The position numbers and the translations under genes are program-made. The notes beneath the pieces are model-generated. The model did not search any database and was not told where the DNA came from. It was given only the letters and a program-made list of their open reading frames with translations. Below are positions 348 to 16,600 of a stretch of DNA of 16,600 nt, in pieces (the first letter of the stretch is position 1; every line of letters begins with the position of its first letter). Origin of the DNA: a virus (Duplodnaviria > Heunggongvirae > Uroviricota > Caudoviricetes); IMG/VR virus record IMGVR_UViG_2654587792_000017. One strand, given 5' to 3'.

Positions 348-645
348 CACATTATGCGCTGTATCGTCGCCGTATTCCCGCATTAACCATGACCGTAGCC
401 CGACAGGGAGACTCCTCTGCGCGAGTGTGCGGGGATAATCAAAAACGATACACACCGGGGTTTACCGCGTTAACGGAGCGCGGCGTTGTCCCCTCATGGT
501 CGCTGGTTCGGTGCGATGGTGGAAGAAACCGGACGATGTGTTACCTCGCAAGACCTGTTATGTCATGTGTCTGATTTGTGATTTAAGTCGGATAATTGTC
601 GTTGCCATTAAGCAGAGGATTGATGGCCGACAGGGTGGCATTGTT

Positions 646-662
646 AGAATAAGACTTATTCT
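646..662. promoter_or_regulatory. Perfect 17-bp palindrome (AGAATAAG-A-CTTATTCT) just upstream of the lipoprotein gene; candidate operator
   Basis: Direct reading: agaataag at 646-653 and its reverse complement cttattct at 655-662, about 20 bp before the lipoprotein start region. A possible -35-like ttgtta lies at 640-645. Confidence 0.3.
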
Positions 663-682
663 TATCTGTGCCGGGAATGAAA

Positions 683-1009
683 ATGAAAAGAAATCTTCCG
701 TTAATTATTTTGTTGTCTTCTCTGGTTATGGGCTGTACGCAACATAAAACAGATATGCCCCGACAGTTGGTTAAGGCATTACCACAATATCCGGCCTATG
801 CAGCGGCAAATTATATAAAGGGACGGGTTGATGTGAAGTTTGATATTGGTGCTGATGGTACTGTCACCCGAATTGAGTTTATCCGTTCAGAGCCGCACCA
901 TCTGTTTGATGAGCAGGTTGTAAAGGCGATGGCAAAATGGCGATTTGAGAAGGACAGGCCGCGTAAAGGCGTGAAGAAAACGTTTATCTTTAGTCCTTCT
1001 GCACCCTGA
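683..1009 (+). CDS. Lipoprotein with TonB C-terminal-like domain (moron-type accessory gene)
   Basis: ORF 668..1009 (GTG at 668; ATG at 677 and 683). ATG 683 has GGGAA 5-6 nt upstream. The N-terminus MKRNLPLIILLSSLVMGC is a signal peptide ending in a lipobox-like VMGC. The remainder (YPAYAAANYIKGRVDVKFDIGADGTVTRIEF...FDEQVVKAMAKWRFEK) matches the TonB C-terminal domain pattern. The gene is visibly AT-richer than the flanking structural genes. Confidence 0.7.
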   Translation: MKRNLPLIILLSSLVMGCTQHKTDMPRQLVKALPQYPAYAAANYIKGRVDVKFDIGADGTVTRIEFIRSEPHHLFDEQVVKAMAKWRFEKDRPRKGVKKTFIFSPSAP

Positions 1010-1140
1010 TTATTTCATCAGAAATTAATTATCACTCTGTTGTTATTCTGTACATTCCGGCTGGGTAAGTCTTGTTCCGCCGGGTATGAAGATGAAATAT
1101 TGTTGGAGGACAGTGGGTACCTGCTCCTGTAACCGAACGT

Positions 1141-1341
1141 TCATTTCTCGTTATTTGTCATGCTGGCCGGACGCAGATGCGTTGCATCTGTTGCCAGCCT
1201 TCTCCTGCAGGCTTCAATAACCCACGCTGAAAAGTTACCGGAACCTTTATGTTCAAGGGCGATATTGATCTGTTCAATCATGTGATTGGGGAAACGGATA
1301 TTGCGGATTGTGGTTCTGCGGGTCCGGTTTTTCGATGACAT
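1141..1341 (-). CDS. Small YlcI/YnfO-family (DUF3950-like) prophage protein
   Basis: 66-aa ORF on the minus strand with a GAGGAAAG Shine-Dalgarno 6-7 nt upstream of its ATG (reverse complement of plus-strand 1345-1352). The sequence MSSKNRTRRTTIRNIRFPNHMIEQINIALEHKGSGNFSAWVIEACRRRL resembles, by recollection, small proteins found upstream of the terminase in E. coli cryptic prophages (YlcI/YnfO). Confidence 0.6.
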   Translation of the reverse strand: MSSKNRTRRTTIRNIRFPNHMIEQINIALEHKGSGNFSAWVIEACRRRLATDATHLRPASMTNNEK

Positions 1342-1382
1342 TTTCTTTCCTCTGGTGACAAGCTATATGGAGAGGATTTTAC

Positions 1383-1748
1383 ATGGCTGTGCTTCGTACG
1401 TTACCGGGCAGAATCAAAACTCTGAACACCCGGCGGGTGAATGTCCTGAAGGGTGAACAGCGTCGGGTCAGTGGTAGTGCCCGGGTTTCCCTCAAGCGTC
1501 GTATCTGGCTGAGGGATGCCGGACAGTGCTGTCTCTGTGGGCGTGTGGTTGACCTTTGTGACAGTGAACTTGAGCACCGCATTGCACTTCAGTTCGGTGG
1601 TGGTAATGAGGAGACGAATCTCTGGACGCTCTGTACCGAATGCCATCGACAAAAGTCTGCTCGTGAAGCGGCGAGTGGTATGCCAGACCCGACGCTGCCG
1701 GAGGTGTCCGGAGGTAGTGGCAGAGCGGACGACATCATCGGACTGTAA
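1383..1748 (+). CDS. HNH endonuclease (packaging-associated)
   Basis: 121 aa with a Cys-rich HNH motif: CCLCGR...CDSELEHRIALQFGG...NLWTLCTECHRQK. GGAGAGGA Shine-Dalgarno 8 nt before the ATG. It sits immediately upstream of the putative cos and terminase small subunit, as in HK97-like phages. Confidence 0.85.
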   Translation: MAVLRTLPGRIKTLNTRRVNVLKGEQRRVSGSARVSLKRRIWLRDAGQCCLCGRVVDLCDSELEHRIALQFGGGNEETNLWTLCTECHRQKSAREAASGMPDPTLPEVSGGSGRADDIIGL

Positions 1749-1756
1749 CCCGACCC

Positions 1757-1809
1757 GGGGGGGGGTATCATCCGGCGTAAAAAAAGATCGCTTTGGACAC
1801 CGCCCCCCC
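1757..1809. other. G9 and C7 homopolymer tracts flanking a ~37 bp spacer; candidate cosN/cos-cleavage region
   Basis: Direct reading: nine G at 1757-1765 and seven C at 1803-1809, with an A7 tract between them, in the non-coding gap between the HNH gene and terS. The position is consistent with a cos site. This is inference only. Confidence 0.3.
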
Positions 1810-1840
1810 TCTCACGCAGAGAAAAAATTCCCGTTTCAGG

Positions 1841-1968
1841 GCAGTTAACATGTTAACTGGCTGTCCGGGCATTTTTGCGGTTTTTATCTTTATTATTCAG
1901 TTTGTTGTGCGGAAAAAATGTTAACTGGCTTTTTCAGCAAATGTTAACCAGGCAGCAGTTAACATTTG
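1841..1968. promoter_or_regulatory. Cluster of GTTAAC-centred direct and inverted repeats with A/T tracts; candidate cosB-like terminase small-subunit binding sites
   Basis: Five GTTAAC hexamers in about 125 bp. GTTAACATGTTAAC at 1844-1857; the 13-mer ATGTTAACTGGCT repeated exactly at 1850-1862 and 1918-1930; a perfect inverted repeat AAATGTTAAC (1939-1948) / GTTAACATTT (1958-1967) with a 9-bp spacer; phased T/A tracts between them. It lies immediately upstream of terS. Confidence 0.5.
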
Positions 1969-2039
1969 CGGCATGAGACGCCGGGAAAAATGGGCTGAAC
2001 CATACCCGGCTGAGTGCGTTCTGGACCCGGGAGGAGGCT

Positions 2040-2579
2040 GTGCTGACAACGCAAAAACGAAAATTTGCGCTGGCGCTCATGTCCGGGAAAAACAAAACAG
2101 CGTCAGCCATTGCCGCTGGTTATTCGGCGAAGACCGCCAGGGTTAAAGGCTCGCAGCTGGCAAAAGATCCGGAGGTGCTTGCGTTTATAGCCCGTAAACA
2201 ATGCGAGACGGTGGAGGTGGATGAGGTTCCTGTTTACCGGCAGAAAAAATCAGAGCAGGAGGATAAACCCCGTCGCCGTGAGGCGGCTGCAATACCACAG
2301 CCGGACGAAAACAATCCGGAGATGCCACCGTCCGCGGTGATGTCTCCTGGTATTGAATATATGGAGGATGGTCTTCCCGATCCGGTGAAAGCGATGGGGC
2401 GTCTTCTGGTGGAGAACATTAATACCGACCCCAGGCTGGCGCAGTTCACGCACCATAAAAAAGGGGATGCCGGTAAAAAATCGGCAAAAGGTGACGCGGC
2501 GAAAAAAGCGGCTAACCGTTTTGCGGTGCCACCACCACCCCGCCTGGTGGTGAATAATGATAATGAGGGCAACGGATGA
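2040..2579 (+). CDS. Terminase small subunit
   Basis: 179 aa, GTG start with GGGAGGAGG Shine-Dalgarno. N-terminal helix-turn-helix-like region MLTTQKRKFALALMSGKNKTASAIAAGYSAKTARVKGSQLAKDPEVLAFI typical of P27/HK97-type small terminase subunits, with a low-complexity C-terminal tail. The stop overlaps the terL start (ATGA). Confidence 0.85.
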   Translation: MLTTQKRKFALALMSGKNKTASAIAAGYSAKTARVKGSQLAKDPEVLAFIARKQCETVEVDEVPVYRQKKSEQEDKPRRREAAAIPQPDENNPEMPPSAVMSPGIEYMEDGLPDPVKAMGRLLVENINTDPRLAQFTHHKKGDAGKKSAKGDAAKKAANRFAVPPPPRLVVNNDNEGNG

Positions 2580-4237
2580 TACCTGTGTGGAGCACGGCCT
2601 GCCCGGACTGGGCAGAGCGCCTGAAAAAGGGGCTGTCGATTATTCCGGCTCCGATTTATCCGGACCAGGCTGCACATGCACTGGCGATTTTTAAACAACT
2701 GCGAATTGTGGATGCACCGGGTAGCCCGACATTCGGGGAGTCCTGTGCACCGTGGGTGTTTGACCTGGTGGCGGCCCTGTTTGGCTCCTACGATGCGCAG
2801 ACCGGTGTTCGCCATATCAAGGAAGTGTTTATCCTTATCCCCAAGAAAAACAGTAAGTCCACGCTGGCTGCGGGGATCATGATGACGGCGCTGTTACTGA
2901 ACTGGCGGCAGGCGGCGGGCTACACCATTCTGGCCCCGACCGTGGAGGTGGCGGCTAACGCCTTCAACCCTGCCAGGGATATGGTACGACGGGACGATGA
3001 TCTGGATGACCTCTGTCAGGTGCAGACACATATCCGGACCATCACCCATCGGGTGACGGACACCACCCTGAAGGTGGTGGCAGCCGATCCGAATACGGTG
3101 TCCGGTATCAAGTCCGTGGGGACACTGATTGATGAACTGTGGCTGTTTGGCAAGCAGTACAAGGCGGAAGACATGCTACGTGAAGCCATCGGCGGGCTTG
3201 CCTCCCGTCCGGAAGGGTTTGTGGTGTATACGACCACCCAGTCGAATGAACCGCCCGCCGGGGTGTTCAGACAGAAACTGCAGTATGCCCGGGATGTCCG
3301 TGACGGCAAAATTCATGATCCGCACTTTCTGCCGGTGATTTTTGAGCATCCTCCTGAAATGGTGGAAAGCGGGGCTCACCTGCTGATGGAAAACCTCGCC
3401 ATGGTTAACCCGAATCTCGGTTATTCGGTGGATGAGGCCTTTCTGTACCGGGAGTACCGTAAAGCCCGGGAGGCTGGTGAGGAAGCATTTCGTGGCTTCA
3501 TGTCAAAACACGCCAATGTGGAAATCGGTCTTGCCCTGCGTTCTGACCGCTGGGCGGGCGCGGATTTCTGGGAGCAGCAGGGCAGGCGCGTCAGCCTGGA
3601 CGATATCCTGCAGCGCGCTGATGTGGTGACGGTGGGGATTGACGGCGGGGGCCTGGATGATCTGCTGGGAATGTACGTGACTGGCCGTGACAGGGAAACC
3701 CGCGAATGGCTGGGCTGGGGCCATGCCTGGGTGCATGAAACCGCGGTGGTCAGACGGAAGAGTGAGGCATCCCGGTTTCAGGATTTTGTGGCCTGTGGAG
3801 ACATGACGATTGTCCGTCGGGTCGGGGATGACACGGCGGAAGTGGCGGAGTATGTGCGTCGTATTCATGAGGCTGAGTTACTGGATCATATCGGTATTGA
3901 CCCGTCAGGTGTGGGGCAGATTCTGGATTCACTGGCGGAAGCCGGGATCCCCGATGAGAGTGTGGTGGGGATAAGCCAGGGCTGGAAGCTGGGCGGGGCC
4001 ATCAAAACCACCGAGCGCAAACTGGCTGAAGGGGTGCTGATTCACGGTGATCAGCCCCTGATGGCCTGGTGTGTCGGTAATGCCCGGGTGGAGCCTAAAG
4101 GTAACGCCATTCTTATCACCAAACAGGCCAGCGGACGGGGAAAAATTGACCCGCTGATGGCGCTGTTCAATGCGGTCTCCCTGATGTCCCTTAACCCGGA
4201 ACCGAAAAAGAAAGAATATGCGGTTTTTTTCATATAA
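2576..4237 (+). CDS. Terminase large subunit
   Basis: 553 aa with a Walker A-like ATPase motif (LIPKKNSKSTLAAG) and a C-terminal nuclease-like region. Start overlaps the terS stop. The size and position fit an HK97-family TerL. Confidence 0.92.
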   Translation: MIPVWSTACPDWAERLKKGLSIIPAPIYPDQAAHALAIFKQLRIVDAPGSPTFGESCAPWVFDLVAALFGSYDAQTGVRHIKEVFILIPKKNSKSTLAAGIMMTALLLNWRQAAGYTILAPTVEVAANAFNPARDMVRRDDDLDDLCQVQTHIRTITHRVTDTTLKVVAADPNTVSGIKSVGTLIDELWLFGKQYKAEDMLREAIGGLASRPEGFVVYTTTQSNEPPAGVFRQKLQYARDVRDGKIHDPHFLPVIFEHPPEMVESGAHLLMENLAMVNPNLGYSVDEAFLYREYRKAREAGEEAFRGFMSKHANVEIGLALRSDRWAGADFWEQQGRRVSLDDILQRADVVTVGIDGGGLDDLLGMYVTGRDRETREWLGWGHAWVHETAVVRRKSEASRFQDFVACGDMTIVRRVGDDTAEVAEYVRRIHEAELLDHIGIDPSGVGQILDSLAEAGIPDESVVGISQGWKLGGAIKTTERKLAEGVLIHGDQPLMAWCVGNARVEPKGNAILITKQASGRGKIDPLMALFNAVSLMSLNPEPKKKEYAVFFI

Positions 4238-6254: not shown

Positions 6255-6272
6255 GGGAGGCGTGCGCCTCCC
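6255..6272 (+). other. Perfect 8-bp GC-rich inverted repeat (GGGAGGCG-TG-CGCCTCCC) directly after the capsid stop
   Basis: Direct reading. It is preceded by a strong Shine-Dalgarno-like TAAGGAGG at 6245-6252 and has no T-run after it, so it looks like an RNA-stabilising or translational-control hairpin rather than a terminator. Confidence 0.35.
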
Positions 6273-16306: not shown

Positions 16307-16600
16307 ATGACACAGACAGAATCAGTGATTCTGGCACACACCCGGCGGTGTGTGCCTGCGGAGTCGTGCGGCTTCGTGGTGAGAACGCCGGAGGGGGAGC
16401 GGTATATCCCTTGTGTGAATATCTCTGCAGAGCCGGAGGCGTATTTTCGTATTGCACCGGAAGACTGGCTGCGGGCAGAGATGCAGGGGGAGATTGTGGC
16501 ACTGGTCCACAGTCATCCCGGTGGTCTGCCCTGGCTGAGCGAGGCCGACCGGCGGCTGCAGATAAAAAGTGCACTGTCCTGGTGGCTGGTCTGCCGGGGG
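16307..16600 (+). CDS. K: Tail assembly protein (lambda gpK-like), 3'-truncated by the window end
   Basis: Not in the ORF table because no stop is reached. ATG at 16307; translation MTQTESVILAHTRRCVPAESCGFVV...ALVHSHPGG..WLSEADRRLQ carries the JAB/MPN-like HSHPGG motif and matches my recollection of the lambda gpK N-terminus. The frame is open to 16600. Confidence 0.85.
   Translation, partial: MTQTESVILAHTRRCVPAESCGFVVRTPEGERYIPCVNISAEPEAYFRIAPEDWLRAEMQGEIVALVHSHPGGLPWLSEADRRLQIKSALSWWLVCRG

Follow-up and report, generated by a model that had tools for sequence, protein, structure and literature searches.

What is a gene for a TonB C-terminal domain doing in a prophage? The question is raised by IMG/VR virus record IMGVR_UViG_2654587792_000017 (Caudoviricetes), a stretch of 16,600 nucleotides that is called the window below. 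It contains a small gene for a predicted lipoprotein with a TonB C-terminal domain (the TonB-C gene; Table 1). The window comes from a lambdoid prophage of Shiga-toxigenic Escherichia coli (STEC) with an HK97-type head, and its closest phage relatives are Stx1a phages: positions 165–2600 share 94% identity with Stx1a-converting phages and with phage JLK-2012. A first-pass annotation, made from the sequence alone, had read the gene as a moron whose product mimics TonB and hinders TonB-dependent entry of phages and colicins. What it had observed in the sequence was confirmed throughout, and the computational checks that it had proposed (domain profile, lipoprotein signal, and predicted fold) all turned out in its favor. 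Its overall interpretation is partly supported by our analysis, while the role at TonB boxes is still hypothetical. We tentatively propose that this moron (a gene of lysogenic conversion) encodes a putative TonB decoy tethered to the outer membrane, a reading that we find plausible but would not call probable.

The domain annotation is old and public, and the gene itself is not new. Compared with the searchable literature, five points appear to be new: (i) the lipoprotein reading, (ii) the evidence for selection, (iii) the anatomy of the promoter and operator, (iv) the family of homologues with Fur boxes, and (v) the prevalence of about 30% among complete E. coli genomes.

A predicted outer-membrane lipoprotein with the TonB C-terminal fold

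The first-pass annotation had noted a lipoprotein signal with a lipobox-like VMGC and a domain of the TonB C-terminal type, and both withstood closer inspection. The signal peptide passes a PROSITE-type lipoprotein rule that requires a basic n-region and a hydrophobic h-region ahead of a lipobox whose Cys is invariant. The lipobox is L-V-M-G/C, with the signal-peptidase-II site at Cys18 and Thr at position +2. The lipobox and Cys are kept in intact homologues down to about 34–44% identity, and across the family the +2 residue is T, S, A, or V, never D. Thr at +2, with no Asp there, predicts sorting of the lipoprotein to the outer membrane by the Lol system. The mature protein of 91 aa comprises the Cys, predicted to be lipidated, a linker of ~7 residues, and a complete TonB C-terminal domain.

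The domain is recognized by Pfam PF03544 (TonB_C; 56 bits against a cut-off of 24.6, E=5.5e-15) and by TIGR01352 (56.5 bits against 27.1). Equivalog models of full-length TonB align only via their residues ~152–240, and NF008084 yields 73 bits for a cut-off of 315. A phmmer search of the PDB sequences retrieved the C-terminal domains of E. coli and Salmonella TonB (E~1e-16) in a single ungapped stretch. Alignment with TonB of an E. coli strain that bears the same prophage gene gave 39.7% identity over 78 ungapped residues (TonB 153–230). P161, Q162, Y163, and P164 of TonB are retained; the YP motif and beta3, the strand that pairs with TonB boxes, are within the domain. Each of the five conserved aromatic positions is occupied by an aromatic residue: F180, F202, W213, and F230 are identical, and Y215 is replaced by Phe. 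An AlphaFold2 model built with 20 homologues has a mean pLDDT (predicted local distance difference test) of 87. Its best Foldseek matches are the TonB C-terminal domains 1u07, 2gsk_B, and 2grx_C (probability 1.00; root mean square deviation, rmsd, 1.0–1.4 Å), with rmsd 1.0 for BtuB-bound TonB (2gsk_B) and 1.1 for FhuA-bound TonB (2grx_C).

Thus, the phage protein and the C-terminal domain of E. coli TonB (~150–239; PDB 1U07, 2GSK, 2GRX) have the same fold and share the YP motif, the aromatic core, and strand beta3. The phage protein differs in having no N-terminal transmembrane helix, which is the inner-membrane anchor of TonB, no proline-rich rod, and no counterpart of residues 233–239. Because both the anchor and the rod are lacking, the protein is not a TonB energy transducer; the predicted lipid anchor would attach it to the outer membrane instead, where it could not transduce energy. 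A search of BFVD returned no viral structural relatives at E<=0.001, and there were no matches to Cor or Llp in Pfam, PHROGs, and PADLOC.

Selection and distribution

The alleles of the window and of phage 21 encode proteins with 71% aa identity, and the ratio of nonsynonymous to synonymous substitution rates between them (dN/dS) is 0.12, at dS of about 1.5. Judged by this ratio, the gene is under strong purifying selection. The alternative that it is a functionless, decaying fragment of a captured tonB could appeal to old annotations ('partial tonB-like', 'TonB fragment') and to the many truncated or frameshifted copies in assemblies. It is scarcely credible, given the low dN/dS at such a dS, the gain of a lipoprotein signal conserved family-wide, the transcription of the Perceval homologue in a lysogen, and the occurrence of the gene in so many complete E. 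coli genomes; the selection analysis largely refutes it. Of the phage 21-type allele, the databases contain many copies with truncations, frameshifts, or fusions at the N- or C-terminus (P0010, P0012, P0018, P0021, P0027, P0033), and the gene is decaying in some genomes or assemblies, the overall purifying selection notwithstanding.

Among 5426 complete E. coli genomes, positions 600–1100 of the window are present with 95–100% identity in 417, always in the chromosome and with the gene labelled 'TonB family protein'; the phage 21 allele is present in 1225. The two alleles together occur in roughly 30% of these genomes. In phages the gene is an optional element, the TonB-C protein being encoded in 15 of the 230 phage records that match the flanks. 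The slot is constant, on the late-gene strand between the lysis cassette and cos or the terminase genes, and it is shared by five different prophage backgrounds, among them a Klebsiella phage and an unrelated prophage with a DUF2514 spanin gene. Phage 21, PhiR47_2, ev017, and Perceval have bor adjoining it. The first-pass placement between regulatory and packaging genes holds for the window, where a Rha-family gene lies upstream; for the relatives, 'after the lysis cassette, before packaging' is the better description.

As the first-pass annotation had noticed, the gene is AT-richer than its neighbors. Its guanine-plus-cytosine (GC) content is 44.0%, and that of third codon positions (GC3) is 41%, compared with 55.5% GC for the packaging genes (1187–4237) and a GC3 of 66% for terL. 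In the adherent-invasive E. coli (AIEC) strain LF82, the copy carried by prophage Perceval, a 71% homologue annotated as LF82_160 ('TonB fragment'), was transcribed 8-fold over the prophage background in lysogenic culture, and the authors of that study count it among the morons (PMC9928086). The designation as a moron is therefore supported by presence or absence of the cassette among collinear phages, deviant composition, conserved promoter-like elements, and a transcribed homologue. No intrinsic terminator was predicted on either side of the gene in positions 300–1450. Since the gene lies on the same strand as the lysis operon with no predicted terminator before it, late read-through from that operon in lytic growth is likely.

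Two other interpretations are suggested by the slot. The first follows the label of the best PHROG match (phrog_1267, E=1.9e-42), 'Rz-like spanin', and takes the protein for a lysis accessory, which would suit a lipoprotein gene lying just 3' of the lysis genes. We consider it very improbable. Genuine Rz/Rz1 genes lie upstream in phage 21, in locus L030, and in E. coli strain E2863, and the allele encoding an 89% identical protein is also downstream of an Rz1 gene. In the curated phage 21 genome, S21, R21, and Rz/Rz1 precede the gene, which is named 'TonB C-terminal domain protein'. The product has a globular TonB domain in place of a short proline-rich Rz1-like body, it has no C-terminal membrane helix such as a unimolecular spanin needs, and collinear phages exist without the gene. 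The separate upstream Rz/Rz1 genes and the globular domain with no C-terminal helix led us to reject the spanin reading. The entry phrog_1267, placed in the lysis category, is essentially the TonB-C lipoprotein family at full length; its label looks like an annotation error, one that will propagate to phage genomes.

The second interpretation starts from Bor. The lambda Bor/Lom-type morons occupy the same slot 3' of Rz and encode an outer-membrane protein expressed from the prophage. The TonB-C protein differs from Bor in its fold and presumed target, and its gene is on the strand opposite to bor. It could be a conversion lipoprotein of this kind, in which the TonB-type fold serves another ligand (peptidoglycan, a host factor, or an envelope protein) and the effect is serum resistance, envelope stability, or colonization instead of competition for TonB boxes. 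The bor slot shared in phage 21 and PhiR47_2, conserved surface motifs of the family that are unlike TonB, and enrichment in pathogenic lineages of E. coli (STEC and AIEC, for example) are consistent with this. We regard it as improbable, given that the parts contacting the TonB box (the YP region and beta3) are kept and that the model superimposes very closely on receptor-bound TonB.

A candidate promoter and the palindrome

The perfect palindrome noted in front of the gene by the first-pass annotation consists of 8-nt arms around a single unpaired base, AGAATAAG-A-CTTATTCT. By itself it is not remarkable. The window contains five palindromes of this class (spacer 0–3), compared with 0.98 ± 1.05 in mononucleotide shuffles, for which the maximum was also 5, and the one before the TonB-C gene is thus not beyond chance. 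Its conservation is more informative. The palindrome is unchanged in three alleles, encoding proteins 100, 89, and 85% identical to that of the window, while the surrounding bases vary. In the alignment of these alleles TTAGAATAAGACTTATTCTTAT is invariant, and positions 619–638 just upstream are 55% identical. The palindrome is not present in the phage 21 and P0007 alleles of the allele alignment.

Both hexamers of the candidate promoter (Table 1), TTGATG and TAGAAT (645–650), are invariant in the same three alleles; in the 85% allele (P0015) the spacer is 17 nt and the TG of the extended -10 is lost. A consensus promoter scan of positions 300–1450, which covered spacers of 16–18 nt only, did not report this element. 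We infer that it is a sigma-70 promoter and that the palindrome, lying over the -10 hexamer and the transcription start, has the usual position of a repressor operator. Reading the palindrome as a terminator or RNA hairpin was rejected: the stem would be an AT-rich 8 bp with a 1-nt loop, none was predicted, and the palindrome spans the -10 and start, not the transcript. Further upstream, a conserved motif resembles a CRP site.

The only promoter-like match that the scan did return in 300–1450 lies inside the coding sequence on the minus strand. This antisense sigma-70-like site (810–837; TTCACA-16-TATAAT, 11/12) is near consensus.

Fur boxes and chromosomal relatives

An exhaustive protein search revealed many lipoproteins of ~110 aa with a TonB_C domain, whose genes are located in prophages and in the chromosomes of Raoultella, Klebsiella, Serratia, Sodalis, and Erwinia. 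This family, partly chromosomal and associated with Fur boxes, was missed by the first-pass annotation. It bears on the identity of the palindrome and raises a rival role in iron physiology.

Of the 16 distant-homologue loci that were scored, 15 have a Fur box matching 14–17 of 19 consensus positions within ~85 nt 5' of the coding start, and in most loci the box precedes the start codon by 11–40 nt; ATTGATAATTATTATCAAT is one of these boxes. In the 165 kb of fetched loci, scores of at least 15/19 occur 16 times, almost all at these Fur sites. The orphan chromosomal genes for such lipoproteins behind canonical Fur boxes (loci L007, L010, and L017–L027) were observed outside prophages. In the five genera named above they seem to belong to the iron-starvation regulon, as a member that has escaped description.

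In the window, the Fur-box-like sequence that overlaps the palindrome scores 13/19, a value that the window reaches five times and that is suggestive only, and the best match in the phage 21 allele is 10/19. The palindrome's own dyad was tried as the Fur dyad and rejected: centred at 654, it agrees with the family Fur palindrome at ~8/18, and the 13/19 match is centred at 657, 3 nt downstream. The palindrome is therefore at best a diverged Fur site. Its most satisfactory explanation is descent, with divergence and possibly with a change of purpose, from the Fur operator of the family. Two other 13/19 matches are located around the 3' end, inside the gene (976–994) and shortly past it (1021–1039), and these may reflect the AT-rich composition of the cassette. 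Fur control would be indicated strongly for the distant homologues and weakly for the window allele.

Control of prophage cargo by a host iron regulator has a documented precedent in the Fur-controlled stx1 genes. The stx1AB genes of Stx1 phages resemble the TonB-C gene in being prophage cargo, and they differ in that Fur control of the latter is deduced from site scores.

The chief competitor of the decoy hypothesis follows from these boxes. The protein may be a Fur-regulated outer-membrane lipoprotein of iron starvation with a non-inhibitory envelope function, supporting or tuning TonB-dependent transport and not blocking competitors of the phage. Its task might be to organize receptors, to keep hold of TonB boxes, or to attach to peptidoglycan in the vicinity of receptors, and the phage would carry the gene for fitness, as Perceval carries sitABCD. 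In favor of this are the strong Fur boxes of the distant homologues, with high scores nearly confined to them, the orphan genes outside prophages, the joint presence of a homologue and sitABCD in Perceval, and the established fact that tonB itself is Fur-regulated. On the other hand, there is no known mechanism by which an unenergized TonB domain would promote transport, the sole experimental precedent is inhibitory, and the alleles of E. coli phages have a weak Fur box or none. On balance we consider such a function unlikely, though to be taken seriously.

A possible decoy for TonB boxes

Another scenario, and the one that we tentatively favor, is competition with TonB. After processing by Lgt, LspA, and Lnt and sorting by Lol, the protein would reside in the inner leaflet of the outer membrane, with the 7-residue tether holding the docking domain under the periplasmic mouths of TonB-dependent transporters. 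There the domain would bind exposed TonB boxes in the manner of TonB, by beta-strand augmentation. Having no coupling to ExbB-ExbD, it would not pull the plug and would compete with TonB. The TonB boxes of incoming group B colicins would perhaps be captured as well. As an outcome, heterologous phages (T1/phi80-type), colicins, and microcins would enter less readily by TonB-dependent routes, and siderophore uptake would suffer to some extent. Expression would be driven by the gene's own promoter with a palindromic operator over the -10; if the operator is a diverged Fur box, the lysogen would express the gene in times of iron scarcity, when the receptors are derepressed.

The function is plausible because periplasmic fragments of TonB inhibit transport. 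According to the account given in PMC9841981 of Howard et al. (2001, J Bacteriol 183:5885), an overexpressed periplasmic TonB domain inhibited iron import, and engineered fragments inhibited transport by FecA and FhuA. Such fragments, as described there, resemble the phage protein in being periplasmic, energy-unlinked TonB C-terminal domains. They were artificial, soluble, and overexpressed, whereas the phage protein is natural, diverged, predicted to be lipid-anchored, and equipped with its own candidate promoter.

The place of action also has precedents. Two small phage lipoproteins, Llp of T5 and Cor of phi80 and N15, sit in the inner leaflet of the outer membrane and target FhuA from its periplasmic side, and inner-leaflet lipoproteins engaging this side are an established exclusion device (T5 Llp). 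The first-pass annotation drew its analogy from these proteins. The analogy survives as to type, that is, a predicted outer-membrane lipoprotein, and is weakened in two respects: the fold is unrelated, and phage 21, which carries a homologue, uses LamB, a receptor that is not TonB-dependent. FhuA, the receptor of the phage itself, is the specific target of Llp and Cor, and the action of Llp is allosteric; the TonB-C protein would address TonB boxes in general. A stricter analogy would have the protein block only the TonB-dependent receptor of the carrier phage, protecting the lysogen and the progeny from phages of the same type. The phage origin of the lipoprotein and the action of Llp and Cor from the same leaflet are consistent with this version. 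The use of LamB by phage 21, the difference in fold, and the presence of the gene in phages with different tail and packaging modules make it quite improbable. Because phage 21 uses LamB, the expected benefit of a decoy would not be self-exclusion.

Several observations weigh against a decoy. The affinity of the TonB domain for the TonB box is weak, and inhibition required overexpression. Residues of the TonB interface are changed in the phage protein (Q160 to L, R166 to Y, and V225/V226 to K/K), and the family has conserved motifs of its own (YYAxAN and SEPxHLFD) that maybe signal another partner. In Klebsiella, Raoultella, Serratia, Sodalis, and Erwinia, the homologues are free-standing genes of the chromosome preceded by strong Fur boxes, and for these relatives a pure inhibitor of iron uptake, induced through Fur under starvation, would be paradoxical and counter-intuitive. 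In the window itself a Fur score of 13/19 recurs, occurring five times in 16.6 kb. Among the known defense families of PADLOC no model matches the protein, and in the literature searched we found no functional study of any member of the TonB-C family, the Perceval expression table aside.

The decoy hypothesis has a broader form. It says that roughly 30% of complete E. coli genomes carry an energy-uncoupling exclusion lipoprotein acting on TonB boxes, which confers broad resistance to phages, group B colicins, and microcins, is switched by iron and perhaps by CRP, and descends from Fur-regulated chromosomal TonB-C lipoproteins of Enterobacterales. Taken as a whole, this is rather doubtful. If confirmed, the decoy would add a new variant to receptor-level exclusion, one that works at the shared step of energy coupling instead of at a single receptor. 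Partial, broad resistance to TonB-dependent phages and colicins in many pathogenic E. coli, including STEC and AIEC, would then have an explanation, and prophage cargo would be tied to iron signaling. There would also be consequences for phage therapy and for siderophore-antibiotic conjugates, as each depends on uptake via TonB. Apart from the decoy, the Fur-boxed chromosomal relatives represent an unstudied part of the iron-starvation response in their five genera. The gene is small, common, and easily testable.

Gene boundaries and neighboring DNA

The coordinates of the features are collected in Table 1. The RefSeq record for the gene (WP_000828070.1, 'TonB family protein', 108 aa) starts at ATG 683, with GGGA at 673–676, 7 nt upstream of it; the mechanical open reading frame spans 668–1009 from a GTG, and an in-frame ATG at 677 is an alternative start. 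The 5' neighbor is the 3' end of the Rha-family regulator gene, and the 3' neighbor is a convergent DUF3950/YnfO gene (1141–1341, minus strand). Further downstream are the genes for an HNH endonuclease (1383–1748) and for the small (2040–2579) and large (2576–4237) terminase subunits.

Table 1. Features at and around the TonB-C gene (positions in the window; strand given where assigned)
Feature	Position	Strand	Remarks
Variable cassette	534–1186		Replaced by an unrelated AT-rich 246-bp stretch in Stx2 phage 1717 and many relatives
CRP-like motif TGTGATTTAAGTCGGA	577–592		TGTGA-N6-TCGGA, ~72 nt 5' of the expected start; near-invariant in all five alleles compared
Candidate sigma-70 promoter	620–650	+	-35 TTGATG (620–625), 19-nt spacer, extended -10 TGtTAGAAT (642–650)
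8+1+8 palindrome AGAATAAGACTTATTCT, candidate operator	646–662		Overlaps the -10 hexamer and the expected transcription start
Fur-box-like sequence GATAAG-AATAAG-T-CTTATT	648–666	-	13/19 to consensus; same position and three-hexamer layout as the Fur boxes of homologues
TonB-C lipoprotein coding sequence	683–1009	+	108 aa and stop; RefSeq start ATG 683; P0001 99% identical, 108 aa
Predicted lipoprotein signal peptide MKRNLPLIILLSSLVMG and lipid-modified Cys18 (codon 734–736)	683–736	+	Rule-based test; Thr at +2
TonB C-terminal domain (residues 26–103)	758–991	+	Ungapped alignment to E. coli TonB 153–230

Upstream of the cassette lies a block of ~190 bp with no annotated gene (354–545, 192 nt). 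It is 85–100% identical among the window, the phage 21, P0003, and P0007 alleles, and phage 1717, and is kept with or without the TonB-C cassette after it. Its predicted RNA fold is not unusual on either strand (z = -0.7 and +0.3), and it has no Rfam and no Pfam match; the Rfam scan of the window likewise gave no match.

In E. coli strain E2863 (NZ_AP018802.1, 1710191–1710910; locus L003, 26192–26911), the host tonB gene lies just past the right end of the prophage that carries the TonB-C gene. It follows tail genes, a cluster of type III secretion effector genes, and insertion sequence remnants. Such a setting for tonB is the classical phi80-type one. It may be a coincidence or a hint at the first capture of a piece of tonB.

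Other perfect palindromes were observed elsewhere in the window. One of 18 bp, CAGTTAACATGTTAACTG, lies at 1842–1859 between the HNH endonuclease and small terminase genes and could be a site tied to cos or to the action of the terminase or HNH endonuclease. Two more with 8-nt arms, GGGAGGCGTGCGCCTCCC (6255–6272) and CAGAATCAGTGATTCTG (16317–16333), are in the region of the structural genes.

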